Shown here in pieces: positions 1 through 64,000 of a stretch of 64,000 nucleotides of DNA. A program made the position numbers and the translations under genes. Under the pieces are notes generated by a model that saw only the letters and a program-made list of their open reading frames with translations, was not told the origin of the DNA and did no database searches. Numbering within the stretch: position 1 is the first letter of the stretch; each line of letters opens with the position of its first letter. This DNA is from an uncultured Rhodobacteraceae bacterium. Lineage in GTDB: Bacteria; Pseudomonadota; Alphaproteobacteria; Rhodobacterales; Rhodobacteraceae. Location of the stretch: positions 4,125 to 68,124 of the forward strand of contig CANNFQ010000018.1 of assembly GCA_947503925.1 (NCBI GenBank). The letters run 5' to 3'.

Positions 1-861
1 TCCGCCACGCAGCGCAATCTGGGGCTGGGCCTATGTACCAGTGATATTGTCTTCATGCTGGATGATGACAGTTTCATGTTCCCGGACTGTGCAGAGGAAA
101 TCCTGCGCGTCTACGCCGCCGATACGGGTAATCAGGTCGCGGCGGTCTGTGCCGGGCTGGTGGGTGAACTGCCCCCGATCAATGACAGCACCGCCACGGC
201 CTTGCCTGCCCGCAAACAATCCGGGCGGCGTCAAAGTTCATTGGCTTACAAGCTGCTGCACACGAAACTTGGGCTTTGGATCAACCGGAAAATCCTGTTG
301 CAGAACAAGGATGAGCTGTTCATCAAATATGATGAACCGCGCCATGTGCAGATCCCCGATCACCTGAACGCGCTGGAGATCATCCCGCAGAATTTCATGC
401 CGGGGTCAGCCATGACCGTGCGCCGTAAGGTGGCGCTGGATGAACCGTTTGACCCATCCCTGCGCTATTACGCGGCGTTTGAAGATCTGGATGTTGCCTA
501 TCGCTATGCCCGTCATGGGCTGGTGTTGCAGGCCTTGCCCGCCAAAATCCACCATTACGAGGCGCAGGGCGGCCGGGTGAAGCGCAAGAAGCTGGTGATT
601 TTCCAGATGCTGAACATGCTGATCTTTCTCAAACGCCATGCTGCCCGGCCCGAGGCGTTTTTATGGCGTTACCGGATCCTGATGCTGCGCCGCATGATCG
701 GGGAAGGGGCCAAGGATTTTTTGGCCCGCCGTTGGGATTTCCCGCAATTGCGGGGTGTGTTTGTGGTCATGCGGGAATGGCGCAAAGTGTGGAACACCGA
801 TCTGGACGCCCTTGATCAGTGGTATCCGGAATTCCAAAAACGCATTTTGGATGATCTTTGA
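1..861 (+). CDS. Glycosyltransferase family 2 (5'-truncated by window edge)
   Basis: Frame is open from base 1 (SATQRNLGLGLCTSDIVFMLDDDSF): RNxG plus DxD-type motif; later FEDLD motif typical of GT2. Confidence 0.8.
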   Translation, partial: SATQRNLGLGLCTSDIVFMLDDDSFMFPDCAEEILRVYAADTGNQVAAVCAGLVGELPPINDSTATALPARKQSGRRQSSLAYKLLHTKLGLWINRKILLQNKDELFIKYDEPRHVQIPDHLNALEIIPQNFMPGSAMTVRRKVALDEPFDPSLRYYAAFEDLDVAYRYARHGLVLQALPAKIHHYEAQGGRVKRKKLVIFQMLNMLIFLKRHAARPEAFLWRYRILMLRRMIGEGAKDFLARRWDFPQLRGVFVVMREWRKVWNTDLDALDQWYPEFQKRILDDL

Positions 862-1045
862 TCCCGTGTTTCAAACATAGGTTGTGCCCGGAAAGCCTAT
901 AGGAATCCTGCACAAATAAGATAGAATACCAGCTAATCTACATTCATCCGGTACCATGCCGGGCCGTTATTGTTTTGTATCCCAAAGCCCATGTTTATAC
1001 AAAAGTGGTCCGGGGTTTATGTAAGTTGTTTTGAGCAGGTCATCC

Positions 1046-1819
1046 ATGAAGTGGTATTCTTCAAGCAAAGATGAAACCATCGCAGTTAATGTGACATCGC
1101 AATCTGTTCTTCTGGGTGATCTTAAACAGCGCCTTGAGGCAGTGAAGGGATTCACGGTCGCCACGTTGAACCTGGATCACGTGGTCAAGCTGCGCCGTGC
1201 AGGTGCCTTTCGCGAGGCTTATGAACATCACAGCCACATCACTGCTGATGGCAATCCGATTGTCTGGTTGCTGCGGTTGGCAGGCCAGCAGGTCAGCCTT
1301 GTGCCGGGCTCCGAACTTGTCGAACCAGTGCTGGAAATTGCCGCGTCGATGGATGTGCCGGTTGCGTTTCTGGGGTCGACACCGGCCTCGCTTGAAAAAG
1401 CCAAGGCGACCCTGACTACCCGTTATCCGGGGCTGCGTGTTGTGGCCTGTATTGCGCCTGCCATGGGTTTTGATCCGGCCGGGCCGGCTGCGGATGAGGC
1501 GATAGCCCAGCTACAGCAAAGCGGGGCGCGGCTTGTGTTTCTTGCACTGGGCGCCCCAAAACAGGAGGTTTTTGCTGCAAGGGCACAAGAACAGCTGCCT
1601 CAGACCGGTTTTCTGTCGATCGGGGCGGGGCTGGATTTCATATCCGGCACCCAGACCCGCGCACCCAAACTGGCGCAACGGCTGGCCCTTGAATGGCTGT
1701 GGCGGCTGGTTAGTAGCCCGATGCGGCTGGCGCGCCGCTATGGCAGTTGCATCCTGATCCTGCCCGAACTGGTCTGGCGCGCCTTGCGCAGCCGTAGCAG
1801 CGGGGCTGTCTCACGGTGA
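1046..1819 (+). CDS. WecB/TagA/CpsF family glycosyltransferase (GT26)
   Basis: Motifs TLNLDH, ITADGNPI, VPGSEL, VFLALGAPKQE, IGAGLDF, LEWLWRL. ATG at 1046 preferred over TTG 1031. Confidence 0.9.
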   Translation: MKWYSSSKDETIAVNVTSQSVLLGDLKQRLEAVKGFTVATLNLDHVVKLRRAGAFREAYEHHSHITADGNPIVWLLRLAGQQVSLVPGSELVEPVLEIAASMDVPVAFLGSTPASLEKAKATLTTRYPGLRVVACIAPAMGFDPAGPAADEAIAQLQQSGARLVFLALGAPKQEVFAARAQEQLPQTGFLSIGAGLDFISGTQTRAPKLAQRLALEWLWRLVSSPMRLARRYGSCILILPELVWRALRSRSSGAVSR

Positions 1820-2910
1820 AGGAACAGGCCCATATTGCAGACCAGGTCCCCCATGAGCGGATGAAGTTTGTTGAAAACAAGGATCCTGATCTGGCCCGCG
1901 TCGCGGGCCTGCTGGAAACATGTGCCAGTGCCAATCAATGGGCCAATTTCGGGCCGCTTTATCACCGTCTGGCCGCAGATTACGCCGCCCATATGGGGCT
2001 TGGCCCCGGGCTGACCATCACCCCATGCGCGAATGCTGGCATCGGATTGGAGATGCTGGCACGGGCACTGACGGCAGAGGCGGATAAGCCCGCACTCCGC
2101 TGGGTTGGGTCGGCCTTCAGTTTTAAAAATCTGGGCCGGGGCTATTTCGCGGATATGCAATTTGTCGATTGCGATGCGCAGGGGGTTCTGGATATCGCTT
2201 TGCTTGAGGCGCTGCCGGTAGACAGTTTTGACGGTGTCATCGTCACCAACCCTTTTGGGCTGTTGCAGGATTTTGCCCCTTTCATTCGTTTTGCTGAAAA
2301 GACCGACAAAAAACTGATCATCGATAATGCCGCAGGTTTGGGGCAGGGGATTCCGCCCTGGCCCTGGCAGGTGTTCAGCCTGCATCACACCAAGCCTTAC
2401 GGCATGGGCGAGGGGGGGCTGGTCCTGTCGCCTGCTGCGGTTGCGGAACTGCTAGTCCTGATGATCAACTATGATGCGGTGCCGATCAAACCGGCCTATT
2501 GGCTGAATAACGGCAAGATTTCCGACCTGTCCTGCGCCTTTCATATCGCCCGGCTGCAACAGGTCGATCAGTGGAAAGGCGGGTATCTGGAACAGCGCGC
2601 ACGGATTGCGGGCCTGTTTGCCGGTTTCGGCGTGCAAAGCCTGCTGCCCGAAGCAGGGGCTGTGCCGGTCAATACATTGCCTGTCCTGATGGGTGGGCCG
2701 GTTGTGCCGGAACGCCTGCATGTGCCGCGTATCGTCGATATCACCCGCCAATATCAGCCGTTGGTGCCATTGCCGCAGGCGCAGGCGATCTATGACCAGA
2801 TTATCAATTTCCCGGTCCATCCTGAGCTGGCCCGATTGTCAGACGCCCAGATCAATGGCGATATTGAATTGTTGCTGGGCGCTGTCGCAGATCACAAATC
2901 TGCTGGCTGA
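1816..2910 (+). CDS. DegT/DnrJ/EryC1/StrS family PLP-dependent sugar aminotransferase
   Basis: NFGP start motif, IIDNAAG (PLP-binding Asp), FSLHHTKPYGMGEGG (PLP Lys), NGKISDL, C-terminal NFPVHPEL. Confidence 0.85.
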   Translation: MKEQAHIADQVPHERMKFVENKDPDLARVAGLLETCASANQWANFGPLYHRLAADYAAHMGLGPGLTITPCANAGIGLEMLARALTAEADKPALRWVGSAFSFKNLGRGYFADMQFVDCDAQGVLDIALLEALPVDSFDGVIVTNPFGLLQDFAPFIRFAEKTDKKLIIDNAAGLGQGIPPWPWQVFSLHHTKPYGMGEGGLVLSPAAVAELLVLMINYDAVPIKPAYWLNNGKISDLSCAFHIARLQQVDQWKGGYLEQRARIAGLFAGFGVQSLLPEAGAVPVNTLPVLMGGPVVPERLHVPRIVDITRQYQPLVPLPQAQAIYDQIINFPVHPELARLSDAQINGDIELLLGAVADHKSAG

Positions 2911-4112
2911 TGGGTGTGGCTACGCCAACCGGGCCTGAACTGGTCGCCCTGCCGCCCCTGAAGGCGGTGCGTGGTCCCAATGGCGGCGCAATCATGACCC
3001 AGAAATATATCGAGGGCATTCAGGAACTGGCCAAGACATGGCCCGGCCCGATCACCACCCTTGCGGGATTTCGCACCAGCATGACCACCGATATGGATCA
3101 TGTGGAAATCCATGGTGATCAGCCCGTCATCGCGGTTGAACAGCGCCCCGACAATATTGCCCAACTCAAAGAGCGGCTGTCAAAAGCCGCCGTGGTGATG
3201 ACCTTCCTGTCCCCGCTGGAGGCATATACCGGCCAGATTTGTCAGGAATTGGGGGTGCCGCTGGTCTATTCATCGGAATATGCCCCCGCGACAGAACGCC
3301 AGATCGTTGATGCCGAAACGCAGAACCCGTTATTGCGCCTGCGCCGCAAGATATGGATCTGGAATGCCACCCGCAAACGCCGCGCCATGGCGACCCAGGC
3401 TGTCGGGCTGCAATGCAGCGGCACCCCGGTCTACGAGGCCTATCGCGCCTATTGTGCAAAGAGCCTGTTGTTTTTTGACAACCGAGTGCGTCATGCTGAG
3501 GTTCTAGATGATGCGGCGATGGCCGCAAAATGTGCCGCGTTGCAGCAGGACCGTCCGCTCAGGCTGGTGTTTGGCGGGCGCCTGATTGCCATGAAAGGTG
3601 TGCTTGAACTGCCCAAGATCGCCACGGCGCTTGGCCAGCAGGGCACCCCTTACCAGATGGATATCTATGGCAGCGGACCTTTGGAAGACGCATTGCGCGC
3701 GCAGATCGATGCGGCGGGGCTGGGCGCACAGGTGCAAATGAAAGGCGCGCTGGATTTCCGTACCGGCTGGATCCCGGCCTTGAAGGAAAAGGCGGATCTG
3801 TTCATCTGCCCGCATCCGCAAGGCGACCCCTCCAGCACATATCCCGAAGTTATGTCATGCGGCGTGCCGATCGTTGGATACGATAATGAGGCCTTTCGTG
3901 GGGTGGTGGCGCAATCGCAAGGTGGGGTGCTGACCCCGATGAACCGGCCCGCGGCATTGGCCGAGGCAGTTGCCCGGCTTGATCAGGACCGGGCAGAGCT
4001 GGTGCGTCTGGCACAGAAAGCACGGGAATTTGCGCTGGAACATTCCTTTGAAAAGACATTTGCCCGCCGGGCCACCCATCTGATGGAGGCGGCCGAGATC
4101 GCGCAGGGCTGA
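2910..4112 (+). CDS. Glycosyltransferase family 4
   Basis: GT-B C-terminal domain: FGGRLIAMKG, DIYGSGP, EVMSCGVPIVG. Confidence 0.85.
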   Translation: MGVATPTGPELVALPPLKAVRGPNGGAIMTQKYIEGIQELAKTWPGPITTLAGFRTSMTTDMDHVEIHGDQPVIAVEQRPDNIAQLKERLSKAAVVMTFLSPLEAYTGQICQELGVPLVYSSEYAPATERQIVDAETQNPLLRLRRKIWIWNATRKRRAMATQAVGLQCSGTPVYEAYRAYCAKSLLFFDNRVRHAEVLDDAAMAAKCAALQQDRPLRLVFGGRLIAMKGVLELPKIATALGQQGTPYQMDIYGSGPLEDALRAQIDAAGLGAQVQMKGALDFRTGWIPALKEKADLFICPHPQGDPSSTYPEVMSCGVPIVGYDNEAFRGVVAQSQGGVLTPMNRPAALAEAVARLDQDRAELVRLAQKAREFALEHSFEKTFARRATHLMEAAEIAQG

Positions 4113-4114: not shown

Positions 4115-5722
4115 CTATTCGGGCATATATTGCAGCAATGTCGGTTCGATATTGCGGACTACATCCATCAGCCGCGCCTCTGCCGCGCTGTCGCTTTCAC
4201 CGGGGGCGATCAATGTGGTCAGCCGGACTATGCCGCCATCGGTGCGCCCGGTGCGCACCCCATCGACCATCAGCCACAGCTTTGCGCCAAAATCCCAGGC
4301 CACGCGCCGCCCCTTTTGTTCAAACCAGTAATAGACCATCATCCGAACCTCGCCTTTTTGAATGATGGCCCGGTTAAGGTTGAACGGCACTGCCTGATCA
4401 AGGGCCGGGCCGATATCGGACCGTTCCAGCCAGGCGATTTCCCATCCTGCCCCGGGTAGACAGATTTCCGGGCTATGGACGCCGCCCGCAGTTTGGTCGG
4501 CATACCAGGCCATGAAAAGACCTACAGACGGGTCATCACCACGGGCCAGGGTGACGTCGTGATAATCATCGGCTTTCAACGCCAGCAAGGTCTCCGGGTC
4601 CAGCCGGCGGGCGGGCCCTTGCTGTTGCCAGTCGCCGATCATGGCGGGATAGGCAATAAACGGGGTACGGGGCAGTTGCATCTCGGCCCGTTGCGGAATG
4701 GCTGTCCAGGCCAGCGTGGCCGCGATCAGAATGCCGGTTGCCGCCATCAGGGCGGTGGATGGCTGGATCAGCCGTAGCCGCAATGCCTGCTGGCCCAGCC
4801 CGTCGGTTTCAAGATCCAGCGCTTCGGTCAGGCGCATCTTTTGCCGCTGGAACCGCAACAACACCCAAGCCAGCGCAAACAGGATCACGATACAGGCGAT
4901 AAAGATCACCCAACCTTCAAAGAAATGAGTGAACCCTTCGAGCCAATCGACACCGTAATGCTGTGCCAGAACCCCGGCCACGGCGATCCGGACCGAATTC
5001 ATCAAAACGGTGATGGGTGCGGCAGAGATCAGCAGGATTGCCTTATGCCAGATCGGCCCTTTGTAAAGCACCGCAAAGATGTAGGAAAAGCTCAAGATAG
5101 GGAACAGGTAGCGTAGCCCGGAACAAGCCTCGGCCACATGCAGCTTCAGCACGCCAAGATCAATGATATTGCCTTCGAGGAAAACAGGCACCGCCAGCAG
5201 TCCCAGAAACCAAACCCCCAGTTCCGATGAGATCAGCTGCAACCCAGCCGACATCTTGTAATAAAGCGTATCGGGCAGGGGCAGCATATAGACCAGATGC
5301 AGCACAGGCGGCCAGAAATGCCGCCCCACCCGCCAGCCAAAACTGATTAGCAGCAGCCCACCAACCCAGATGATCAACGCATAGGCCACGATATCATCGA
5401 TATTGGCCAGCCGCCCCAGCGCACCCAAAAGCACTGCGGCAATGACCACAAACACCCCCGGCCAGCGGTCATCAACTTGTCCGGGAGTGGGCGGATATTC
5501 CTTGAGTTGGCGCAGGAACAACAGGGCAGACAGCACCGGGATCAGTGGCCCGTGGCTGTATTCAGGCAATTGCCAGGCTTTCAGAAGGGCCGCCAGCCCA
5601 TCCTGAAAGAAAAACCCGGCTGCCAGGATCGCCAGCACAAGCCAGAACATCCCCCATGTCAGAAAGGATGTGATCATCATGCGCAGCGGATGCAGGAATT
5701 GGGTTGTCACGGACTGGGACAT
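4115..5722 (-). CDS. xrtD: Exosortase D (VPLPA-CTERM-specific) fused to EpsI-like periplasmic domain
   Basis: EYSHGPLIP, VAEACSGLRY (catalytic Cys), NSVRIA (Arg), HFFEGW (His); multi-TM N-half; C-terminal HSPEICLPGAGW EpsI motif; VPLPA-CTERM gene in the same window. ATG 5722 chosen; ORF is open to 5752. Confidence 0.92.
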   Translation of the reverse strand: MSQSVTTQFLHPLRMMITSFLTWGMFWLVLAILAAGFFFQDGLAALLKAWQLPEYSHGPLIPVLSALLFLRQLKEYPPTPGQVDDRWPGVFVVIAAVLLGALGRLANIDDIVAYALIIWVGGLLLISFGWRVGRHFWPPVLHLVYMLPLPDTLYYKMSAGLQLISSELGVWFLGLLAVPVFLEGNIIDLGVLKLHVAEACSGLRYLFPILSFSYIFAVLYKGPIWHKAILLISAAPITVLMNSVRIAVAGVLAQHYGVDWLEGFTHFFEGWVIFIACIVILFALAWVLLRFQRQKMRLTEALDLETDGLGQQALRLRLIQPSTALMAATGILIAATLAWTAIPQRAEMQLPRTPFIAYPAMIGDWQQQGPARRLDPETLLALKADDYHDVTLARGDDPSVGLFMAWYADQTAGGVHSPEICLPGAGWEIAWLERSDIGPALDQAVPFNLNRAIIQKGEVRMMVYYWFEQKGRRVAWDFGAKLWLMVDGVRTGRTDGGIVRLTTLIAPGESDSAAEARLMDVVRNIEPTLLQYMPE

Positions 5723-5864
5723 GATAAAATGGCAACGCAGAAAAAGGAACAAACACGAAGGGTGATCTTAGGCGAATTTGCCCGCCAATACCATGAAAAG
5801 CGGTTTCACAAAAACGTTCTTTCGTCACGAGGGATGACAAGCTGCCAGATGTAAATCATAAGCG

Positions 5865-7202
5865 GTGCGGCTGCCTGCATATTATGACGAAAGCTTTCTT
5901 TTGACCGGTTCCATTCCAAAAGTTCTGATTATCGCCGAAGAGGCGAACCCCGAATGGGTCAGCGTGCCGTTGGTCGGTTGGTCACTGGCTTATGCCCTGC
6001 GCGATGTGGCGGATGTGCATATCGTCACCCAGATCCGCAACCGTGATGCGTTCCTGCGCGCGGGCCTGACCGAAGGGGATGATTTCACGGCGATTGATTC
6101 AGAAGCCATCGCCGCCCCGCTGCACCGGTTTTCAGCCGCTCTTGGCCTGGGCAGTGGCAAGGGCTGGACCCTCAACACCGCGATCATGTCGCTGACCTAT
6201 CCTTATTTTGAACGGCTGGTCTGGAAACGCTTTGGCACGGATATCAAGGCCGGGCGCTATGATCTGGTGCATCGGATCACCCCGCTGAGCCCGACGACAA
6301 ATTCAACGATTGCCGCCAAATGTGCCGCCGTTGATGTGCCTTTCATGATGGGCCCGCTCAATGGCGGGGTGCCATGGCCAAAAGGTTTTGATACCGAACG
6401 CCGCCGCGAACGCGAGTGGCTATCCTATATCCGCGGCGCCTATAAGCTGATGCCGGGACGCGGGCGCAGCCTTGCCGCATCCCGTGCCATCCTGGTTGGT
6501 TCGCGCCATACCGGCAGCGAAATTCCGCAAAAGCATCAGCACAAGCTGGTCTATATGCCTGAAAACGCAATTGACCTGTCGCGGTTCAACAAACGCGCGG
6601 GTCAGGATCTGACCCCGCCTTTGCGGGGTTGTTTCATTGGTCGCCTTGTCCCTTACAAAGGGCCCGACATGTTGCTGGAGGCCGCAACCCCGCTTTTGCG
6701 GGATGGCAGGCTGACCCTTGATATCATTGGCGATGGGCCGATGCGTAGCGATCTGGAAACCATGGTGGCGCAGGGTGATCTGGGCGGGGTCACGTTTCAC
6801 GGCAACCTGCCGCATGAACAGGTGCAGGATGTGGCGGTTCGGTCCAACCTCCTGACCTTTCCGTCGATCCGGGAATTTGGCGGCGGTGTTGTGCTGGAGG
6901 CGATGGCGCTGGGGGTAGTGCCACTGATTGTCGATTATGCCGGCCCGGGTGAGCTGGTGACATCCAACACCGGCTATAAAATCCCAATCGGGTCGCGGGA
7001 TGCCATTATCGCAGGGTTAGCGGATAAACTGGCAGAGATCGCCGCCGCACCCGAAGATTTGCCGGATATGGGCGCCCGCGCCCATGCCCGGGCCTATGAT
7101 TTATTCACCTGGCCTGTCAAAGCCCGTCAGGTGCGTGAAGTGTATGATGCCGTGCTGCATGGTAAGCCGGGTGCGTTGTCATCACTGCAATGGTTTTCTT
7201 AA
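5865..7202 (+). CDS. Glycosyltransferase family 4
   Basis: FIGRLVPYKG, DIIGDGP, SIREFGGGVVLEAMALG (EX7E). Start codon uncertain. Confidence 0.88.
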   Translation: MRLPAYYDESFLLTGSIPKVLIIAEEANPEWVSVPLVGWSLAYALRDVADVHIVTQIRNRDAFLRAGLTEGDDFTAIDSEAIAAPLHRFSAALGLGSGKGWTLNTAIMSLTYPYFERLVWKRFGTDIKAGRYDLVHRITPLSPTTNSTIAAKCAAVDVPFMMGPLNGGVPWPKGFDTERRREREWLSYIRGAYKLMPGRGRSLAASRAILVGSRHTGSEIPQKHQHKLVYMPENAIDLSRFNKRAGQDLTPPLRGCFIGRLVPYKGPDMLLEAATPLLRDGRLTLDIIGDGPMRSDLETMVAQGDLGGVTFHGNLPHEQVQDVAVRSNLLTFPSIREFGGGVVLEAMALGVVPLIVDYAGPGELVTSNTGYKIPIGSRDAIIAGLADKLAEIAAAPEDLPDMGARAHARAYDLFTWPVKARQVREVYDAVLHGKPGALSSLQWFS

Positions 7203-7215
7203 AGGGGTCCTTGTT

Positions 7216-8121
7216 ATGGATAGATCCGGTTATGTGCTGATTTCGCCTTGCCGCAATGAGGCTGATTATATGCGCCGCACATTGGACAGTGTGGCGGCCC
7301 AGACAGTGACGCCCGCCCTTTGGTTGATTGTCGATGACGGGTCCACTGATGCCACCCCGGATATCCTGCGTGAATACGCAGATAAGCATGACTGGATCAC
7401 GGTTGTCACCAAACCTGACCGGGGCCACCGGGCGGTTGGGCCCGGGGTTATTGATGCGTTCTATTTCGGTGTGGAACAGATCGATCTGGCCGCCTATGCC
7501 TATTCCTGCAAGTTTGACCTCGATCTGGAAATACCGCCGCGCTATTTCGAGATTCTGATCAGCCGGATGGAAGATGACCCAAGGCTGGGGACCTGTTCGG
7601 GCAAGCCTTATATCATGCGCAACGGGGCGCTTGTGTCCGAACGCCGGGGGGATGAGATGTCTGTGGGCATGACCAAGTTCTACCGCCGGGAATGTTTCGA
7701 TGACATTGGCGGTTATGTCCGCGAGGTCATGTGGGACGCGATTGATTGCCACAAGGCGCGCCAAAAGGGATGGATCGCGCGCAGTTGGGATGAACCTGAT
7801 CTGCGGTTTGAACATTTGCGGCCCATGGGGTCCAGCCAATCAGGCATCTATACCGGGCGCAGGCGGCACGGGTTTGGCCAGTATTTCATGGGCTCTGACC
7901 CGCTGTTTTTTCTGGCGACCAGCGTGTTTCGGATGACAGAGCCGCCTTATATCCTGGGCGGTCTTGCGACGATCCAGGGGTATTTGGGCGCCTGGCTGCG
8001 GCGGGACAGGCAATTGGATGATCCTGAACTGGTTCGTTTCATCCGTGCCTATCAGCGGCGCGCCCTGCGCAAGGGCAAGGCTGCGGCGATTGCAGAGCAG
8101 GAAGCCGCGCAAGCGCGCTAG
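7216..8121 (+). CDS. Glycosyltransferase family 2
   Basis: LISPCRNEA, IVDDGSTD, KFDLD motifs. ATG 7216 follows the upstream stop; the ORF-track extension from 7084 overlaps the previous gene. Confidence 0.9.
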   Translation: MDRSGYVLISPCRNEADYMRRTLDSVAAQTVTPALWLIVDDGSTDATPDILREYADKHDWITVVTKPDRGHRAVGPGVIDAFYFGVEQIDLAAYAYSCKFDLDLEIPPRYFEILISRMEDDPRLGTCSGKPYIMRNGALVSERRGDEMSVGMTKFYRRECFDDIGGYVREVMWDAIDCHKARQKGWIARSWDEPDLRFEHLRPMGSSQSGIYTGRRRHGFGQYFMGSDPLFFLATSVFRMTEPPYILGGLATIQGYLGAWLRRDRQLDDPELVRFIRAYQRRALRKGKAAAIAEQEAAQAR

Positions 8122-10397: not shown

Positions 10398-10468
10398 GCG
10401 GTACAGGTACAGGGTTATCAGGCATATACTGCCTTTGGGATATCATTGGTGCCGCAGGCAGACAATCA

Positions 10469-12010: not shown

Positions 12011-12039
12011 TCCACCACCCCGAAGGGACCGATATCACG

Positions 12040-56304: not shown

Positions 56305-57858
56305 ATGTTGCATCAGTCATCAGGTTTTCACCTGCTTATATCGATATGTGTTACCCTTATCGGGGTATTCCTTACAAAGCTGATACTGGACCCTTCAACA
56401 GGGTTTGATGACGCCAATATCACCATGAACTTTGCCCAGAACATCGCCAATGGCGCTGGCTATGTGTACTATATCGGTGGTGAACGGGTTGAAGGCTCAT
56501 CATCAGCCCTTTGGACCCTGATCAACACGGTCGCGTTCCTATTTTTTGATCATATTGAAAGCCCATTATCCGCTCTGGGCCTGATCATCTGTATCGCCAC
56601 GATTTATATCGCTATCCAGATCACGCATTTGCTTTTGGTGGCAGGCGGGAAAGGCGACGGCCCAGCATGGTTAACAGGTGCTGCGTTTCTATTCTTTCCG
56701 TCCTATTTTGCCTATATGGTCTGGAGCTTGATGGATATGGGCCTGTTCATCCTGCTTTCGCTGACAATGTTTTACTGCCTCATGCGGCTGATAAAGGCCG
56801 GCCCGTCCCGGTTTTATGGCGTAACTTTCATTGTTTGCGCGGCATTGCTGAGTGCAGCACGCCCTGAAGGTGTTGCTGTCGCTGTTGGGATGAGCGCCCT
56901 TTTGTGGATTGGCCTTCGCATCATTGATCAGCAAAAAATCTCTGGCGTGGCGATTGCCGGGCTTGTTGCCGCCCTTGGCATGATCGCCGTTCTGACACTC
57001 ATCCGGCTCTGGTATTTTGGGCAACCGGTCCCCAATACATTCTACGCCAAAGTATCGACAAGCTATGCCAGCCAGCTGATAGCGGGAATGAAATATTCAA
57101 TCCGCTATCTTTATGATCCCATGAACCTGGGGATGATCGCCCTGTTTTTCATCGCAATCGCCGTGATGACACGTATAAAAATCGTCATTGTGTTCTGGCT
57201 GATCGCATTGTGTTGCTGTGCGGGGGTGTTCGGCATTTATTCGGCCCTTGGTGGTGACCACTTCGGGTCTTTCCGGTTTTATCAGGTGCTGACGCCACTC
57301 TTGCTTCCTTGGGCTGTTGCGGCTGCCATTGTCCTGGGGACAACATCCTCAAAACATGCAGACGGATGGCAAAAAAGCATGCGTATACTGGCAAGCGCCA
57401 TTCTGCTTGTCGCTGCCTGGGGACAGTTCACCCAAACCAAAGGCGGCATTGCTATTGATTTTCGCATCGCCGAAGCAGGCCGATTGTCCGGAGAGGTCTT
57501 GAATGATTTTGAGCCCGCGCCATCACTTGGCATTCTTGCCGCCGGCGGCATTGCGATGACATATGAGGGCGCGATTTTTGATCTGCTTGGGCTCAACTGG
57601 GTGGAAATGGCCCATAGTAACCGGTCCGCCATGCGCGTCAAAAATAACAGCGGCTTCAGTCAGGACGTCTTTTTTAACAACCCCCCAGATTTGATCCTCC
57701 CGGAAATTCGCGACTGCGGCTTACCTCCAATGGATTATCAATGGGTTATGGATGAAGTCATCGCGTCGGATACTTTCCAACAGCTTTATCGTTACGATTG
57801 CTACCGTGGGGTGGCTTTCTTCATCAAGAGGGATATTCCTCTGCCCGCTGCATCATGA
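56305..57858 (+). CDS. AftB-like arabinofuranosyltransferase (GT-C)
   Basis: DDANITMNFAQNIANGAGYVYYIGGERVEGSSSALW matches the AftB-type DD..I....N...G.G....GERVE...S..W loop; ARPEG, GDHF, DLLGL. Confidence 0.78.
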   Translation: MLHQSSGFHLLISICVTLIGVFLTKLILDPSTGFDDANITMNFAQNIANGAGYVYYIGGERVEGSSSALWTLINTVAFLFFDHIESPLSALGLIICIATIYIAIQITHLLLVAGGKGDGPAWLTGAAFLFFPSYFAYMVWSLMDMGLFILLSLTMFYCLMRLIKAGPSRFYGVTFIVCAALLSAARPEGVAVAVGMSALLWIGLRIIDQQKISGVAIAGLVAALGMIAVLTLIRLWYFGQPVPNTFYAKVSTSYASQLIAGMKYSIRYLYDPMNLGMIALFFIAIAVMTRIKIVIVFWLIALCCCAGVFGIYSALGGDHFGSFRFYQVLTPLLLPWAVAAAIVLGTTSSKHADGWQKSMRILASAILLVAAWGQFTQTKGGIAIDFRIAEAGRLSGEVLNDFEPAPSLGILAAGGIAMTYEGAIFDLLGLNWVEMAHSNRSAMRVKNNSGFSQDVFFNNPPDLILPEIRDCGLPPMDYQWVMDEVIASDTFQQLYRYDCYRGVAFFIKRDIPLPAAS

Positions 57859-57864: not shown

Positions 57865-58698
57865 TTATGCGGGTCGTGCGACATAGTTGAAACTGGTGAA
57901 GTCATCCGGATCATCCAGTTCAAAATGGTTGACCTGTATCTGATTGCCATCATCATCGACACAAAACACCCGATAGCCGTGTTCTGAAAGGATGTCCCAG
58001 ATTTCCTGTGCAACCTGCCTTTGATGGGTGCAGGTATCTTCGGGCAGAAAGTCGTGATCATCGCCAGTAAAATTGGGCATAACTTCAAAGAAAAGAATGG
58101 GTTGGGCGTTTTTTAAGGTCTTTTGCAATCCCTCCAATACGCTGAGTTCAGCCCCTTCGACATCGATCTTGATAATACCGGGGTTGGTGCATCCAAGTTC
58201 TTGCAATACCGCATCGCCCGCACGCATCTGCACGTAATTGATATTGCTATATGCGCGCCCTTGAACATTTCCGATCAAAGACCCCATTTCGTCGAAAGCA
58301 CCGTTCGAATAGAATTTCACGAGCCTGTCGTCGTCAGACAGTGCGAGCGGCAAAACATGAAAATCCTTGATATCGTTGTCTTTCAGGAAGGTGCCGATCA
58401 GGTGGCAACAGGCATGTTGTGGCTCAAAGCCGAAATACGTCCGGTTTGGATCGACCCCAAGCACCTTGAGCATGGTTTGACCAATATTTGCACCTATATC
58501 GATGAAAGCCCCCGGGCGTTCATCGAGTGCCTCAGCTATCAGCGCATTTATTGCCTCTTCATGATGGACAGTTTGCATCCCGAGGCGATTGGCAAAGTAG
58601 CCTCTGATCTTATACTGGTTCTTGCCTATTTGTAGCGTATGCCCAAGCTGATAACGCAGCAGCGGTAAATGGTAAGACAGCCTTTGAAAAAACGGCAT
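57865..58698 (-). CDS. FkbM family methyltransferase
   Basis: FIDIGANIG, GFEP, IKIDVEGAELSVLEG. Confidence 0.9.
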   Translation of the reverse strand: MPFFQRLSYHLPLLRYQLGHTLQIGKNQYKIRGYFANRLGMQTVHHEEAINALIAEALDERPGAFIDIGANIGQTMLKVLGVDPNRTYFGFEPQHACCHLIGTFLKDNDIKDFHVLPLALSDDDRLVKFYSNGAFDEMGSLIGNVQGRAYSNINYVQMRAGDAVLQELGCTNPGIIKIDVEGAELSVLEGLQKTLKNAQPILFFEVMPNFTGDDHDFLPEDTCTHQRQVAQEIWDILSEHGYRVFCVDDDGNQIQVNHFELDDPDDFTSFNYVARPA

Positions 58699-58844: not shown

Positions 58845-59735
58845 TCACGTGCCTGATGTCTGATCTGGCCCCTTGGGCGCGTCAGCCTTATCTTCGATCT
58901 TCTGTTCCGGTGTGAAATAGGCACCGTCCCGCAAGACGGCTTCGACATGTTCGACGCCCACGATCTCGCGTTCGCTGATGGACGCATAAAGCATACAGAT
59001 ATCACAAAGCTGGTTGACCAGCCGGGGAATGCCGCCGGTAATCTCATGTACCCTGTCCGACGCCGCCCGACTGAACATATGCGCGCTGCCCCCTGCCCTT
59101 TCGAGCCGGTGGATGATATAGGAATAGACCGTTTTCTGATCCATATGGGACAGATGAAAACTGGATGCGATCCGCTGGGCGAATTGTTTCATGTCGGGCC
59201 TGCGGATGATATCGCGCAGCTCTGGTTGCCCGATCAGCAGCAATTGCAGCAATTCATCCTTGTTGGCATTGATATTGGTCAGGGTCCGCAGCTCTTCCAG
59301 CGCCTTGCGCGGCATGTTCTGTGCTTCATCAAAGATCATCAGCACATGGCGCCCTGCGGCATATTCATTGATCAGGAATTGCTGAAACACCTCAAACCGG
59401 TCGACGTAATCGGCATCCTTATCAACCGGGATTTCCAACGCCATCATCACCCAGCGCAAGAGATCGCCCCTGCCTTCATGCATGTTCGACACCAGGCCGA
59501 CTGTCACCGTTTCATCAAGGTTATGCAGCAGATATTGCAAGAGCGTGGTCTTGCCTGCCCCGACCTCTCCGGTGATCAGGGTAATCGGCGCCCGTGTTGC
59601 CACCCCGTATTCAAGCATCGTGTAGGCGCGTTTGTGATCATTGGTCCAATAAAGGAAATCCGGATCCGGCAGGAGCGAAAACGGACGCTCGCTCAGGCAA
59701 AAGAACTCTGTGTAAAGGTTGAGGCTTGCTGACAT
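58845..59735 (-). CDS. ExeA/GspA-like AAA ATPase (exosortase-system-associated type)
   Basis: YTEFFCLSERPFSLLPDP, ITGEVGAGKTT, IFDEAQ, LIGQPEL, GGIPRLVNQLCD; no peptidoglycan-binding tail. Confidence 0.88.
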   Translation of the reverse strand: MSASLNLYTEFFCLSERPFSLLPDPDFLYWTNDHKRAYTMLEYGVATRAPITLITGEVGAGKTTLLQYLLHNLDETVTVGLVSNMHEGRGDLLRWVMMALEIPVDKDADYVDRFEVFQQFLINEYAAGRHVLMIFDEAQNMPRKALEELRTLTNINANKDELLQLLLIGQPELRDIIRRPDMKQFAQRIASSFHLSHMDQKTVYSYIIHRLERAGGSAHMFSRAASDRVHEITGGIPRLVNQLCDICMLYASISEREIVGVEHVEAVLRDGAYFTPEQKIEDKADAPKGPDQTSGT

Positions 59736-59915: not shown

Positions 59916-60497
59916 GTGAATTTACACGTGCATATTGAACAGACAGCCTTAGAGGGTGTTTTCATCCTCACGCCGCAGCGTTTTGGTGATATCCGCGGAT
60001 TTTTCAGTGAAAGTTGGAACCGTCAGCGGATGGCAGATGCCGGGCTTGATTACGACTGGGTGCAGGACAACCATTCCCTGTCAGCCCAGGCGGGCACTGT
60101 GCGCGGCCTGCATTGCCAGGCCCCGCCCCATGCCCAAGACAAGCTGGTCCGCTGTGGCCGTGGCGCGCTGTTCGATGTGGCCGTCGATATCCGCAAGGGA
60201 TCCCCCAGTTATGGCCAATGGGTCGGCGTTGATCTGACATTTGAAAATGGTCGCCAGTTATTGGTGCCTGCGGGGTTTCTGCATGGCTTTGTCACCCGCG
60301 CGCCCGATACCGAGATCATCTATAAATGTTCCGATAATTACGCCCCCGATTGCGACCGTGCCGTGCGCTTTGACAGCCCCGAGATCGGGATCGACTGGGG
60401 GTTGGATGCCCCCGCCATCCTGTCCGACAAGGATCGCAACGCCCCAACCCTGGCCCAGTTCGACAGCCCCTTTACCTATGAAGGCCCAATCGCATGA
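59916..60497 (+). CDS. rfbC: dTDP-4-dehydrorhamnose 3,5-epimerase
   Basis: [35 protein letters not shown]. Confidence 0.95.
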
Positions 60498-61537
60498 AAC
60501 TGCTTGTCACCGGGGGGGCAGGCTTTATCGGCTCTGCCGTGGTCCGTCTGGCGGTAGCCCGGGGGCATCATGTTATCAATCTGGACGCGCTGACCTATGC
60601 TGCCTGTCTGGACAATGTCGCTCCTGTTGCCGACAGCCCGCTTTATGATTTCGTGCAGGCCGATATCCGCGACCGCCCTGCCCTGGATGCCGCCTTTGCC
60701 GCCCATCAGCCCGATGCGGTGATGCATCTGGCCGCGGAATCCCATGTGGACAGGTCCATTGACGGCCCCGGCAATTTCATCGCCACCAATATCACCGGCA
60801 CTTACAACATGCTGGAAGCCGCGCGCAGCTATTGGGTGCAGGCGGGTAAGCCCGATACATTCCGGTTTCATCATATTTCCACGGATGAGGTGTTTGGCAG
60901 CCTTGGCCCCACCGGCCAGTTTTCCGAAGATACCCCCTATGATCCGCGCAGCCCCTATTCCGCCTCCAAAGCATCTAGCGATCATCTGGTGCGGGCCTGG
61001 GCGGAAACCTATGGCCTGCCTGTGGTCCTGACCAATTGTTCGAATAATTATGGCCCTTACCATTTTCCCGAAAAGCTGATCCCGGTGGTGATCCTGAATG
61101 CGCTAGCGGGCAAGCCGCTGCCGATCTATGGCGACGGGTCCAACATCCGCGACTGGCTTTATGTCGAAGATCACGCCGATGCCCTGCTTCTGGTCCTCCA
61201 AAAAGGCCAGTTGGGCCGGTCTTACAATATCGGCGGCGAAAACGAGCGGAGCAATCTGGAACTGGTGCAGACCCTCTGCGCCATTCTTGATGAGCTGCGT
61301 CCTAAGGCGCATGGGAATTATGCTGATCAGATCACCTTTGTCACCGATCGCCCCGGCCATGATGCCCGCTATGCCATTAACCCATCCCGGATGCGCGATG
61401 AGCTGGGCTGGCGCCCGTCGGTCACCGTGGAGGAAGGGCTGCGCCTGACGGTGCAATGGTATCTGGACAATGAAAAATGGTGGCGCGCCTTGCAGCAACG
61501 TCATGGGGTGGGTGAACGGCTTGGAGTCGGGTCGTGA
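60494..61537 (+). CDS. rfbB: dTDP-glucose 4,6-dehydratase
   Basis: [53 protein letters not shown]. Confidence 0.97.
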
Positions 61538-62400
61538 AGGCACTGGTCTTTGGCACCACGGGCCAGTTGGCCAGGGAACTGGCCCGCAGGGCTGGCCCCG
61601 ATATCACACTGGATATGCGCGGGCACGATCAGGCTGATTTCACCGACCCGGCAGCTTGTGCCGCCATCGTGGCCGCAAGTGATGCTGAAGTGGTGATCAA
61701 TGCTGTGGCCTATACCGCCGTGGACAAGGCCGAGGAAGAAGAACCGCTGGCCACCCTGATCAACGCCACCACCCCCACGGCCATTGCCCATGCCGCAGCG
61801 GCCCGTAGCCTGCCATTTGTGCATGTTTCGACCGATTATGTGTTTGATGGGTCCGGGGGCCAGCCATGGGGTCCAGAGGCGCCCACAGCGCCGCTGGGGG
61901 CCTATGGGCGCAGCAAACGGGCCGGAGAGATGGGGATCACCACTACAAATGGCCCTTATGTCATTTTGCGCACATCCTGGGTGGTATCGACCCATGGCAG
62001 GAACTTCGTTAAAACAATGCGCCAATTGGGCCAGACCCGCGATCAACTGACCATTGTCGCTGATCAGATCGGCGGGCCGACCCCGGCGGCGGCGCTGGCG
62101 GATGCCTGTCTGGCGGCTGCAACAGGGCTGCTGGCTGATCCGGGCAAGACTGGGATTTATCATCTGGCGGGGCACCCTGATGTCAGCTGGGCCGATTTCG
62201 CACGCGAAATTTTTGCACAAAGCGGGATCAGTTGCACGGTGACGGATATCCCGTCCAGCGATTATCCGACCCCGGCCGCGCGGCCTTTGAATTCCCGGTT
62301 GGATTGTGCTGCATTCGAACAGGCTTTTGGCCTGCCCCGCCCCGATTGGCGGGATGGTTTGCGCGATATTCTGAACGATCTGGAAAAGGGGGTGTCATGA
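61534..62400 (+). CDS. rfbD: dTDP-4-dehydrorhamnose reductase
   Basis: [53 protein letters not shown]. Confidence 0.96.
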
Positions 62401-63263
62401 CAACCCGCAAAGGCATCATTCTGGCTGGCGGCTCCGGCACCCGGCTTTACCCGATCACATTGGGTGTCTCGAAACAGCTTTTGCCGATCTATGACAAGCC
62501 GATGATCTATTACCCGCTGACCGCCCTGATGCTGGCAGGTATCCGCGAGATTGCCGTGATCACCACGCCACAGGATCAGGACCAGTTCCGGCGGATGCTG
62601 GGCGATGGATCGCAATTTGGCATATCCCTGACCTATATCACACAGCCATCCCCCGATGGGTTGGCCCAGGCCTTTATCCTGGCAGAGGATTTCCTGGCAG
62701 GCGCGCCATCGGCACTGGTGCTGGGTGATAACATCTTTTTCGGGCATGGGCTGCCCGAACTGATGTCAGCGGCAGATGCGCAAAAGACCGGTGCCACCGT
62801 CTTTGGCTATCAGGTGGTGGATCCTGAACGCTATGGCGTGGTGGATTTTGACGAAAGTGGCACAGTGCGCGGGATCATCGAAAAGCCGGATGTGCCGCCC
62901 TCAAACCATGCAGTCACCGGGCTTTACTTTGTCGATGGCACCGCCCCACAAAAATCGCGCGCGGTCCAGCCCTCCGCCCGGGGGGAGCTGGAAATCACCT
63001 CCCTGCTGGAGATGTATCTGGCCGAAGGCAGCCTGACCGTGCAGCGTATGGGCCGTGGCTATGCCTGGCTCGATACCGGCACGCATGCCAGCCTGCTGGA
63101 TGCGGGGAATTTCGTGCGTACTATCGAGGAACGGCAAGGTCAGCAGATCGGCAGCCCCGAAGAGGTGGCCTTCTACTTAGGCTGGATCAGCCGCGATGAC
63201 CTGTCCCGCGAGGCGCAGAAATACGCCAAAAACGCCTATGGCACCTATCTGGACAAGCTGTGA
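62397..63263 (+). CDS. rfbA: Glucose-1-phosphate thymidylyltransferase
   Basis: [59 protein letters not shown]. Confidence 0.97.
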
Positions 63264-63299
63264 CATGAGGGAATGCGCGATGCGATTACGGGGGCTGCC

Positions 63300-64000
63300 A
63301 TGCGTGTCTTACTAACCGGCGGGGCGGGCTATATTGGCAGCCACACGCTGTTGCAGCTGTTGCAAAAAGAAAACGAAACGCTGGTCTTTGATAATTTCTC
63401 CAACAGCTCGCCCGAGGCGCTGCGCCGGGTCAAGCAATTGGCGAACCGGGATTTTGCGATTTGCGATGGTGACATCCGTGATACCGATGGGCTGGATGCC
63501 GCATTCAAGGAATTCCGCCCTGATGCGGTGATCCATTTCGCTGGGTTGAAGGCGGTGGGCGAGTCAAATGAAAAGCCGCTGGATTACTATGGCCAGAATG
63601 TTTCCGGCACGATCGCATTGCTGGGGGCCATGCAGCGCCATGGCTGTGCGCGGATCGTCTTTTCATCCTCGGCCACGGTTTATGGCGAAGCCAAATACCT
63701 GCCCTATGATGAAGACCATCCTTTGCAGCCCACCAACCCCTATGGGCGCACCAAATATTTTATTGAAGAGATCATCCGCGACTGGGCCACATCCTGGCCC
63801 GAGGCCAGCGCGGTACTGCTGCGCTATTTCAACCCGGTTGGGGCCCATCCATCGGGCCGGATCGGTGAAGACCCGCAGGCCATTCCCAACAACCTTGTGC
63901 CCTACATATCGCAGGTGGCCGTGGGTCGGCTTGCCCAGCTGAGCGTCTATGGCGATGATTACGACACTCGCGACGGCACCGGCGAACGCGACTATGTGCA
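63300..64000 (+). CDS. galE: UDP-glucose 4-epimerase (3'-truncated by window edge)
   Basis: atg at 63300: MRVLLTGGAGYIGSHT, IHFAGLKAVGES, FSSSATVYG, PYGRTK, LRYFNPVGAHPSG, PNNLVPY, DGTGERDY. Confidence 0.95.
   Translation, partial: MRVLLTGGAGYIGSHTLLQLLQKENETLVFDNFSNSSPEALRRVKQLANRDFAICDGDIRDTDGLDAAFKEFRPDAVIHFAGLKAVGESNEKPLDYYGQNVSGTIALLGAMQRHGCARIVFSSSATVYGEAKYLPYDEDHPLQPTNPYGRTKYFIEEIIRDWATSWPEASAVLLRYFNPVGAHPSGRIGEDPQAIPNNLVPYISQVAVGRLAQLSVYGDDYDTRDGTGERDYV

Follow-up and report, generated by a model that had tools for sequence, protein, structure and literature searches.

A probable mosaic surface-polysaccharide island carrying the orphan roseobacter PKS/NRPS cluster in an uncultured Rhodobacteraceae bacterium

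The window and its PKS/NRPS cassette

We analyzed a 64-kb stretch of contig CANNFQ010000018.1 from an uncultured Rhodobacteraceae bacterium (the whole stretch is hereafter called the window), focusing on a cassette of four genes that encode, in order, a polyketide synthase (PKS), a GT2 glycosyltransferase, a nonribosomal peptide synthetase (NRPS), and a 4'-phosphopantetheinyl transferase (PPTase). The window holds ~44 genes; most of the region from 20.8 to 57.9 kb is encoded on one strand, and the GC content is ~0.59 outside an islet at 56.1–58.85 kb. Gene identities were obtained from hidden Markov model (HMM) searches with Pfam and NCBIfam/TIGRFAM models and their cutoffs. These searches recovered all of the gene classes named in a first-pass annotation of the same DNA, namely Wzx/Wzz/Wzc glycan genes, the exosortase XrtD, a VPLPA-CTERM protein, ExeA, the PKS/NRPS genes, a decaprenylphosphoryl-arabinose (DPA) pathway, methyltransferases, AsnB, a deacetylase, and Sat-CysC. 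They also recovered genes missing from that annotation: rmlCBDA and galE, about ten glycosyltransferases, a DegT-like aminotransferase, the GMC, SDR, and 11-TM proteins upstream of the PKS, an SGNH-fold protein, and a PA14-domain protein. Scans across the 64 kb found no tRNA genes or Rfam families. The nearest genomes were those of uncultured Rhodobacteraceae isolates (~90% nucleotide identity), followed by Litoreibacter, Yoonia, and Loktanella. A marine metagenome contig of 12.6 kb was 99.7% identical to the window sequence, and sequencing runs containing this sequence came from marine, plastisphere, and algal metagenomes.

The cassette and its neighboring genes comprise the following features.

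27112..33552 (+): single-module type I PKS, 2146 aa, with the Pfam domains KS-AT-KR-DH-carrier-TE (TE, thioesterase)
33556..34578 (+): soluble GT2 glycosyltransferase inside the cassette (PF13641 and PF00535)
34583..39229 (+): NRPS loading module, 1548 aa, with a formyltransferase, an adenylation (A) domain split by a flavin mononucleotide (FMN) monooxygenase, and a carrier (Pfam and TIGR04020)
39226..39864 (+): PPTase (HMM match)
39936..40877 (+): N-terminally membrane-anchored SGNH/GDSL-fold protein, carbohydrate esterase/acyltransferase-like (AlphaFold confidence score pLDDT 92.2; Foldseek)
23302..24939 (+): GMC-family flavin adenine dinucleotide (FAD) sugar dehydrogenase-like protein (Pfam GMC N- and C-terminal domains)
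24854..25708 (+): short-chain dehydrogenase/reductase (SDR) oxidoreductase paired with the GMC enzyme (HMM match)
25749..26897 (+): membrane protein with 11 predicted transmembrane (TM) segments, without a family match

The catalytic residues of the PKS are intact (C184, H320, H361, GHSMG, GGHS, and GFSGG), and no loading domain was found among its Pfam domains. In the NRPS, the FMN monooxygenase (MOx) is inserted between motifs A4 and A5 of the A domain. The best solved relative of this protein is the formyltransferase-adenylation-carrier (F-A-T) module of LgrA, and its MOx part matches PuwE (6ket). Motif mapping of the A domain gave the specificity code D-I-L-x-M-G-M-I-W-K, which we take to be closest to published glycine codes. 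The code is near-invariant among the related loci described below; the exceptions are 9 of 81 loci, which hold three variants with changes confined to position 299.

Foldseek matched the SGNH-fold protein to CE2/CE3 esterases, the SGNH domain of OafB, and PatB, and its residues S60, D243, and H246 are invariant. In its predicted structure, it is similar to carbohydrate esterases and to the SGNH domains that O-acyltransferases of O-antigen and peptidoglycan place in the periplasm.

The best solved relatives of the GMC protein are FAD-dependent glucose and fructose dehydrogenase subunits. The GMC/SDR pair recurs beside the cassette in 17–18 loci, usually with a polytopic membrane protein nearby, and could by analogy with DprE1/DprE2 form an oxidizing and reducing sugar epimerase pair. 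We rejected its identification with the DprE1/E2 pair of the first-pass annotation, because the true DprE1/E2 homologues lie at 54–56 kb and the GMC protein resembles FAD sugar dehydrogenases. The 11-TM protein was likewise rejected as a second Wzy, as it shows no similarity to the Wzy-like protein of the window and has no family match.

Glycan genes around the cassette across genomes

To survey the cassette, the NRPS was used as a query against one genome per GTDB species, and the best 80 of 503 relatives were kept. The cassette loci were taken with 10-kb flanks and searched by tblastn with 45 window proteins; 74 of the 80 species-level loci had at least 5 kb of flank outside the cassette and were considered to have usable flanks. 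The order PKS-GT2-NRPS-PPTase was collinear in 75–82 of 83 loci; in 78 of 83, the GT2 gene separated the PKS gene from the NRPS gene, and in 35 loci the PPTase gene was followed by the SGNH gene.

A homologue of Wzx, Wzy, Wzz, the kinase, ExeA, or WecB was present beside the cassette in 67 of the 74 loci with usable flanks, and either one of these or a glycosyltransferase in 73. The remaining locus carried DPA genes and a PA14 protein, so that glycan genes flanked the cassette in 74 of 74. The gene immediately preceding the PKS was Wzx in 30 loci and ExeA in 14. The cassette is likewise embedded among glycan genes on Aminobacter (Hyphomicrobiales) and Paracoccus plasmids. These results demonstrate, as a new observation, that the orphan roseobacter PKS/NRPS cluster is almost always located inside sugar-polymer loci. 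Within 10 kb of the cassette, xrtD was found in only 2 of the 80 genome loci, and UbiA also in only 2.

The cassette extends beyond Alphaproteobacteria. About 20 of the loci came from Hydrogenophaga (Betaproteobacteria), at 57–58% full-length identity. The Hydrogenophaga loci contain the complete PKS-GT2-NRPS-PPTase set with ExeA and WecB genes directly upstream, and one further Burkholderiaceae locus was found. The presence of ExeA/WecB upstream of the Hydrogenophaga cassettes indicates transfer between classes along with the glycan-locus context.

At closer range, isolate 2-530A-G shares only positions 27108–39238 with the window (89.9% nucleotide identity), its flanks being unrelated. Because the cassette alone is shared, it appears to have been exchanged as a unit between different glycan loci. 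Within the cassette, the PKS and NRPS of the two sequences are 95% identical at the amino acid level and the GT2 76%, a difference that may reflect replacement of the glycosyltransferase allele or its diversification. A further variant lies at 128.5–148.5 kb of a plasmid of Aliiroseovarius sp. M344, where a diverged F-A(MOx)-T NRPS (40% identity) is followed by a 3083-aa NRPS/PKS. This variant adjoins a VPLPA-CTERM protein and xrtD amid nos/nir denitrification genes rather than glycan genes.

A PKS-GT-NRPS-PPTase cluster was first described by Martens 2007 (as cited in PMC4337385, PMC5014874, and PMC4062626). It was counted in 28 of 57 Roseobacter-group genomes (PMC4337385), and papers of 2015, 2016, and 2023 still listed its product as unknown (PMC4337385, PMC5014874, and PMC10584327). 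As these later papers present it, the Martens cluster has the same four genes in the same order as our cassette. While the literature treats it as a free-standing secondary-metabolite cluster, we found it inside Wzx/Wzy polysaccharide loci, and no mention of an association between the cassette and glycan loci was found in the literature searched. Our analysis also goes beyond the earlier description in the reach of the cluster to Hyphomicrobiales and Hydrogenophaga, the glycine-like A-domain code, and the frequent fifth gene (SGNH).

There is precedent for a PKS in a capsule locus. WcbR and RkpA are mono-modular type I PKSs within the Burkholderia wcb and Sinorhizobium rkp capsule clusters (PMC3908369), and their likeness to the window PKS is one of analogy, not of established homology. 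Unlike the cassette, those clusters belong to ABC-transporter-type (KPS) capsules, and neither an F-A(MOx)-T NRPS nor an internal GT2 is reported for them, as far as the account in PMC3908369 goes.

The other modules of the window and their distribution among replicons

The window also contains a predicted pentofuranose (DPA) module with two GT-C candidates and an adjacent methyltransferase.

49564..51135 (+): GT-C-type membrane glycosyltransferase candidate 1, with 9 predicted TM segments
51152..52042 (+): class I S-adenosylmethionine-dependent methyltransferase (PF08241, 55 bits)
52173..53612 (+): HAD phosphatase fused to a UbiA-family polyprenyl-phosphate phosphoribosyltransferase (PRK08238, 618 bits against a cutoff of 351; Pfam HAD and UbiA)
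53564..54031 (+): GtrA-family small membrane protein, candidate flippase of a lipid-linked pentose (NF037976, 170.5 bits against 50)
54028..55353 (+): DprE1-like FAD oxidase (NF053785, 392.6 bits over the full length, below the equivalog cutoff of 500)
55350..56087 (+): DprE2-like SDR reductase (NF053786, 189.6 bits over the full length against 250; PRK07102, 343 against 267)
56305..57858 (+): GT-C-fold glycosyltransferase candidate 2, likely an arabinofuranosyltransferase, in the low-GC islet (AlphaFold pLDDT 91.9)

Neither GT-C candidate had a Pfam, NCBIfam, or PDB sequence match, and fold prediction was therefore needed. The AlphaFold model of candidate 2, built from a 50-sequence alignment, found its best PDB match in mycobacterial AftB (9dlf/9dlh; E 6e-8, TM-score 0.61–0.64), followed by STT3, AftA, ArnT, PglB, and EmbA/B. 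Candidate 1 was related to candidate 2 by hhalign (probability 94%, E 9.5e-8), and some of its homologues are named RgtA/ArnT-like by their sources. The AftB-like fold and this relationship bear out the GT-C enzymes that had been proposed from the sequence at the outset. Candidate 1 and the adjacent methyltransferase form a pair conserved in Ruegeria sp. SCSIO 43209 and Litoreibacter. The two GT-C paralogues and the neighboring methyltransferase point to more than a single acceptor or linkage.

Three-component systems for extracytoplasmic pentofuranose side chains, in which DprE1/E2 homologues specify arabinofuranose (Araf), were recently defined (Kelly 2024, PMC11127046). The window shares with them a UbiA-type polyprenyl-phosphoribose synthase joined to a HAD phosphatase as well as DprE1/E2-type epimerases, and it has candidates for the flippase and the GT-C transferase; the mycobacterial DPA pathway and the TfpW pilin arabinosylation of Pseudomonas aeruginosa are further likenesses. 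The flippase candidate belongs to the GtrA family as in mycobacteria, whereas the Citrobacter prototype uses a MATE protein. The GT-C enzyme of the prototype belongs to GT136, whereas that of the window was compared by fold, with AftB as the best match. The window module differs further in its N-terminal HAD domain, its two GT-C paralogues, and its DprE1/E2 homologues that score below the NCBIfam equivalog cutoffs.

By comparison with these systems, the HAD-UbiA protein would make polyprenyl-phosphate-ribose, which the DprE1/E2 homologues would epimerize to arabinose, probably by the same chemistry on a different (perhaps undecaprenyl) carrier. GtrA would then flip the lipid-linked arabinose, and the GT-C enzymes would transfer it after polymerization. 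Addition of D-Araf side chains in the periplasm is the most likely role of the module. At 36.7–44.1 kb of the Rhizobium leguminosarum plasmid pSK02, a stand-alone UbiA-GtrA-DprE1-DprE2 set is followed by two hypothetical proteins of 518 aa, the size of GT-C enzymes. This six-gene layout equals the DPA module of the window with its two GT-C genes and has no exopolysaccharide (EPS) neighbors; the 518-aa proteins were not detected by tblastn with the window GT-C proteins at E 1e-8.

A second set centers on the exosortase and on genes for tailoring or surface proteins.

4115..5752 (-): exosortase XrtD with a fused EpsI-like C-terminal domain (TIGR04152, 631.6 bits against 400; TIGR02914, 127 against 42.8; 7 predicted TM segments)
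13038..14756 (-): Sat/CysC, bifunctional sulfate adenylyltransferase/adenosine 5'-phosphosulfate kinase for the supply of 3'-phosphoadenosine 5'-phosphosulfate (PAPS) (NF004040, 1032 bits against 669)
41459..45145 (+): PA14-domain protein, 1228 aa, with a beta-helix-like C-terminal part (PA14, 69 bits)
46607..47383 (+): VPLPA-CTERM protein, predicted XrtD substrate (TIGR03370, 29.6 bits against 25.35)
47571..49523 (+): AsnB-like glutamine amidotransferase resembling the XrtA/PEP-CTERM-system amidotransferase (TIGR01536, 469.8 bits against 267; TIGR03108, 548 against 817)
57865..58698 (-): FkbM-family methyltransferase in the low-GC islet (TIGR01444, 88.5 bits against 37.7; GC 0.50)
58845..59735 (-): ExeA-like AAA ATPase resembling the XrtA/PEP-CTERM-system ATPase (TIGR03015, 263 bits against 324.5; AAA_22)

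XrtD also carries the exosortase signature TIGR04178 (69.2 bits against 23). The VPLPA-CTERM protein, the only one in the window, ends in the tail VVPLPAGLPLLIAGLAMFGFMRTRRK, which comprises the VPLPA motif, a TM helix, and a basic tail. XrtA/PEP-CTERM EPS loci and the XrtD/VPLPA-CTERM subfamily were defined in the TIGRFAMs of Haft. The window resembles XrtA/PEP-CTERM (EpsH) loci in having an exosortase with an EpsI domain, a CTERM substrate, a chain-length determinant, a tyrosine kinase, an ExeA-like ATPase, an AsnB-like amidotransferase, a deacetylase, and GT4 enzymes. This set finds its best NCBIfam matches in XrtA-system models, yet the scores fall below their cutoffs, suggesting that the window genes are paralogous, XrtD-type counterparts. 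Where the window has the PKS/NRPS cassette, XrtA loci carry a subcluster of acyl-CoA ligase, acyl carrier protein, and hydrolase genes.

Ten Rhodobacterales plasmids, among them all four Roseobacter plasmids with xrtD, carry copies of Sat/CysC that are 83–90% identical to that of the window. Sat/CysC is a recurrent cargo of xrtD plasmids. Sulfotransferases are encoded on related EPS plasmids with the UbiA module in Rhodovulum sp. MB263 and Leisingera sp. NJS204. A sulfotransferase partner of Sat/CysC may lie outside the window.

The PA14-domain protein contains a linker of 17 PEPTPD units derived from an 18-nt tandem repeat (16.8 copies, 42113–42414), and no signal peptide or CTERM tag was found in its sequence. 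Thr/Pro-rich linkers of this kind are often O-glycosylated. A megablast match to staphylococcal SdrG had raised the candidate of an SD-repeat adhesin with a dedicated GT4 enzyme; this was rejected because the repeat encodes PEPTPD, so that the DNA match reflects low complexity.

The remaining genes include those of the proposed polysaccharide backbone pathway.

1..861 (+): glycosyltransferase, GT-A/GT2-like with a DDD motif (frame open from base 1; 5' end cut by the window edge)
1031..1819 (+): WecB/TagA/CpsF (GT26) glycosyltransferase (TIGR00696, 125 bits against 69; homologues flank the cassette in 26 loci)
1816..2910 (+): DegT/DnrJ-type sugar aminotransferase-like protein (PF01041, 45.8 bits)
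2910..4112 (+): GT4 glycosyltransferase (HMM match)
5865..7202 (+): GT4 glycosyltransferase, EpsH-like (NF041879, 491 bits, below the cutoff of 800)
7084..8121 (+): GT2 glycosyltransferase (PF00535, 60.9 bits)
8118..10397 (-): 759-aa protein with a weak PKD-like stretch (sub-threshold PKD matches only)
10262..12010 (+): Wzy/O-antigen-ligase-like polytopic membrane protein (Wzy_C, 28.8 bits against 31.7; 10 predicted TM segments; homologues in 21 cassette loci)
11896..13002 (+): GT2 glycosyltransferase (homologues in 36 cassette loci)
14828..15517 (-): predicted lipoprotein with a LAGC lipobox (from sequence; without a family match)
15674..16648 (-): polysaccharide deacetylase (PF01522, 63.9 bits)
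16645..17850 (-): GT4 glycosyltransferase, EpsE-like (NF041876, 208 bits)
17925..19295 (-): Wzx-type MOP flippase (full-length match to MOP flippase models; 9 predicted TM segments)
20774..22351 (+): Wzz-like polysaccharide co-polymerase/chain-length determinant (TIGR03007, 171.7 bits over the full length, below the cutoff of 278)
22379..23305 (+): bacterial tyrosine autokinase, the kinase part of Wzc as a separate gene (TIGR01007 and TIGR03018 matches)
45331..46506 (+): GT4 glycosyltransferase (HMM match)
59916..63263 (+): rmlC-rmlB-rmlD-rmlA operon for dTDP-L-rhamnose (all four above equivalog cutoffs)
63273..64000 (+): galE, 3' end cut by the window edge (TIGR01179, 301 bits)

For a Wzx/Wzy pathway, Wzx, a Wzz-like protein, and a kinase were found; Wzy was found only near threshold, with 10 TM segments. 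Glycosyltransferases number about ten. The one at 1..861 is 32% identical to one on the SCSIO 43209 plasmid, on which a 35% homologue of the 759-aa protein, annotated as a PKD-domain protein, adjoins asnB and xrtD. Searches of the window by tblastn with Ruegeria and Roseobacter homologues detected no Wza, priming sugar transferase, sulfotransferase, or tetratricopeptide repeat protein, in agreement with the first-pass annotation on the absence of Wza and a priming transferase. The same searches found no RepA or ParA homologue in the 64 kb, and no ABC transporter was present among the family matches of the window proteins.

To examine how the modules are distributed among replicons, we searched 72,556 plasmids of PLSDB by tblastn. 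As a result, xrtD was found on 24 Rhodobacterales plasmids, the full-length NRPS on 17 replicons including those of Hyphomicrobiales, and the HAD-UbiA gene on 84 replicons including those of Rhizobium and Azospirillum. Among the 24 xrtD plasmids, UbiA was present on five (including two of Rhodovulum and one of Jannaschia CCS1), the cassette on three (four with the Aliiroseovarius variant), one of them from Tateyamaria omphalii, and Sat/CysC on four, namely all four Roseobacter plasmids. Two of the 24, from Ruegeria sp. SCSIO 43209 and R. conchae, combined xrtD, the cassette, and UbiA. None of the plasmids searched carried all four markers (xrtD, cassette, UbiA, and Sat/CysC). xrtD lies within 10 kb of the cassette in Tateyamaria and Primorskyibacter; in Paracoccus yeei it sits amid metal-resistance genes, and in Haematobacter massiliensis xrtD and UbiA are on different plasmids.

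The SCSIO 43209 plasmid unnamed5 (NZ_CP065364; 89 kb, with RepA/ParAB) consists almost wholly of the gene set of the window. The R. conchae M340 replicon (NZ_CP081104) measures 787 kb, with its UbiA gene ~29 kb from the cassette. Both share with the window the PA14 protein, PKS-GT2-NRPS, the PPTase, the VPLPA-CTERM protein, UbiA-GtrA-DprE1-DprE2, GT4-deacetylase, a GT-C enzyme with its methyltransferase, the flippase, the Wzy-like protein, AsnB, xrtD, kinase-Wzz-ExeA, rmlABCD, the WecB glycosyltransferase, and galE. Protein identities range from 50 to 84%, and gene order is extensively rearranged. On both replicons there are, in addition, genes for a priming sugar transferase and a Wza-like exporter, which the window lacks, whereas Sat/CysC and the GMC-SDR-11TM arrangement of the window are missing from them.

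Roseobacter EPS or "biofilm" plasmids and chromids carry islands of the type to which the window probably belongs. In biofilm plasmids, the rml operon and more than 20 polysaccharide genes form a transferable block, and individual sets of polysaccharide genes accumulate (Michael 2016, PMC5030684). The window has rmlCBDA, whose presence within such a block is the hallmark of these plasmids; RepA-I/ParAB and the core ABC exporter, or any replication genes, were not found in it. The core of the plasmids in PMC5030684 includes an ABC capsule exporter, and exosortase, PKS/NRPS, and arabinose genes are not mentioned there.

A probable mosaic island and its alternatives

Two features mark the divergent 1.5-kb junction between wzx and wzz.

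19575..20221 (-): Doc toxin (19575–19988; TIGR01550, 70.7 bits against 38.65) and Phd/YefM antitoxin (19985–20221; PF02604, 45.8 bits)
20355..20468 (strand not assigned): end remnant of an IS30-family element, ~114 nt (84.7% identity)

The remnant matches the 5' end of, and the sequence upstream of, an IS30 transposase gene in Paracoccus seriniphilus. Together with the toxin–antitoxin pair, it looks like a plasmid-addiction module and recombination scar within a glycan island. A scan of the junction for promoters and terminators gave nothing above shuffled expectation. The islet at 56.1–58.85 kb, which holds GT-C candidate 2 and the FkbM methyltransferase, has a GC content of 0.50 and was probably acquired more recently than the adjacent UbiA-DprE2 operon. 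The first-pass annotation had seen no mobile-element boundary between the modules; this junction, the low-GC islet, and the relative that shares only 27108–39238 speak otherwise.

ExeA is 36 kb from Wzz and the kinase in the window, while the three genes are adjacent in R. conchae, SCSIO 43209, Roseobacter denitrificans, Primorskyibacter, and Tateyamaria, which implies a rearrangement. Inverting ~20.5–58.8 kb would restore the ExeA-Wzz-kinase order. We did not retain a specific 38-kb inversion from the IS30 remnant to the FkbM/ExeA junction: no inverted repeats were found at either site, and the inference comes from gene order only.

Based on our data, the window is likely a mosaic surface-polysaccharide island of a Roseobacteraceae bacterium, in which separately mobile modules, with a tendency to gather on shared replicons, have been mixed and matched on a Wzx/Wzy-type backbone rather than forming one obligate system. 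The modules occur alone or in other combinations and no plasmid carries all four markers, which argues for a mosaic. The backbone would be a Wzx/Wzy heteropolysaccharide pathway with about ten glycosyltransferases, an aminotransferase, a supply of dTDP-rhamnose and UDP-galactose, a Wzz-like co-polymerase with a separate tyrosine kinase, and the ExeA-like ATPase. Onto it would have accumulated the PKS-GT2-NRPS-PPTase(-SGNH) cassette, the pentofuranose system, a tailoring set for methyl, deacetyl, amido, and possibly sulfate modification of the glycan, and XrtD, which would sort the single VPLPA-CTERM protein of the locus. The modules would thus converge on the cell-surface glycan layer. Each of them has been described previously, as the Martens cluster, the three-component pentofuranose system, the rml biofilm plasmids, and the XrtA-like EPS loci.

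Its nearly constant location in Wzx/Wzy-type loci makes it reasonable to read the cassette as an assembly line that decorates a glycan. We tentatively propose that it is a glycan-tailoring assembly line rather than a secondary-metabolite cluster, a portable decoration module common to Rhodobacterales, Hyphomicrobiales, and Hydrogenophaga that would install a glycine-derived, formylated and/or hydroxylated, polyketide-extended acyl residue (or lipid anchor) on a Wzx/Wzy surface polysaccharide. Gene identities, folds, synteny, and co-occurrence counts were observed directly; all chemistry, and the polymer on which each module would act, we infer. The NRPS would load glycine and then formylate and/or alpha-hydroxylate it, and the PKS presumably takes this starter from the NRPS carrier and would extend it with at least one malonyl unit (C2). 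Through the TE domain or the SGNH enzyme, the acyl group would then be transferred to one of the repeat-unit sugars. Were the PKS iterative, a longer chain might act as an anchor instead of a small acyl group.

Several points weigh against these interpretations. Linkage is not function, and plasmid cargo may cluster only through shared transfer. The flanks of the 80 loci span just 10 kb, so that wider linkage to xrtD and DPA genes is under-counted. The glycine code comes from motif mapping and comparison with published codes, and the size of the product would depend on whether the PKS acts once or iteratively. A priming transferase, Wza, and a sulfotransferase were not found in the window; the pathway is therefore incomplete as seen, and the link of Sat/CysC to sulfation is unsupported in cis. 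The priming transferase and Wza may lie outside the window.

We also considered whether the window encodes two or more glycans side by side, for example an O-antigen-like polymer and an EPS or capsule, from a left arm (1–19.3 kb, with xrtD, wzx, the wzy-like gene, and glycosyltransferases) and a right arm (20.8–64 kb, with wzz, the kinase, the cassette, the DPA genes, and rml) joined by recombination at the toxin–antitoxin/IS30 junction. The divergence of the arms from this junction, the rearrangement implied by the position of ExeA, and a glycosyltransferase count of about ten, which exceeds the usual requirement of one repeat unit, are all consistent with such a fusion. However, the one Wzx and the one clear Wzy-like gene both lie in the left arm and the chain-length and kinase genes in the right, so that neither arm is self-sufficient, and the inferred inversion is unmarked by repeats. 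We regard this arrangement as somewhat unlikely.

The first-pass annotation had instead read all modules as one integrated system building a single heavily decorated capsule or glycoprotein coat with acyl, D-Araf, methyl, amide, and sulfate groups, in which XrtD would anchor the glycoprotein component. Part of this stands: all modules have predicted surface-glycan functions and lie within 64 kb, mostly on one strand over 20.8–57.9 kb. XrtD, the cassette, and the DPA genes co-occur on the two Ruegeria replicons, one a plasmid nearly devoted to them; xrtD is within 10 kb of the cassette in Tateyamaria and Primorskyibacter; and Sat/CysC recurs on the Roseobacter xrtD plasmids. However, the modules are found independently and in every partial combination elsewhere, gene order is not conserved, and no searched plasmid has all four markers. 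They are unlinked in R. leguminosarum and P. yeei, as well as in H. massiliensis with its separate xrtD and UbiA plasmids, which weakens the single-system claim. Furthermore, the toxin–antitoxin pair with the IS remnant and the low-GC islet interrupt the locus, and a close relative has swapped the flanks around the cassette. The proposed PAPS supply was borne out by Sat/CysC, but the window has no sulfotransferase to use it. One obligate system is therefore unlikely in our view.

We consider it quite improbable that the product of the cassette is a diffusible small metabolite, be it a signal, an antibiotic, or a siderophore-like compound, and that the cassette lies among glycan genes only as fellow accessory cargo. 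Although the literature treats the cluster as one for a bioactive compound whose product is unknown (PMC4337385, PMC5014874, and PMC10584327), its TE domain could release a free acid, and it moves as a unit, glycan genes adjoin it in all 74 loci with usable flanks, in Rhodobacterales and Hydrogenophaga, and also on the Aminobacter and Paracoccus plasmids. Its immediate upstream neighbor is in many cases a co-oriented Wzx or ExeA gene, it includes a glycosyltransferase in 78 of 83 loci, and in 35 it is followed by a membrane-anchored SGNH esterase/acyltransferase-fold protein. Nor did the window show any transporter or regulator of the sort usual in metabolite clusters.

The main value of the locus lies in a prediction that can be tested: the orphan PKS/NRPS cluster of roseobacters would act in glycan tailoring. 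Roseobacters are major colonizers of surfaces and algae, and their attachment depends on plasmid-borne polysaccharide genes. The locus shows the shuffling of decoration modules among EPS plasmids, and, with its two GT-C paralogues, it contributes a probable member from a marine alphaproteobacterium to the recently defined pentofuranose side-chain systems. If the cassette does decorate or anchor a surface glycan, the nearly twenty-year question of its product would become testable, with the polysaccharide fraction, not organic extracts, as the place to look. The tallies of "novel bioactive" biosynthetic gene clusters that genome mining has given for Rhodobacteraceae would then need re-reading, and an NRPS/PKS-made substituent would join the repertoire of bacterial glycan modifications.

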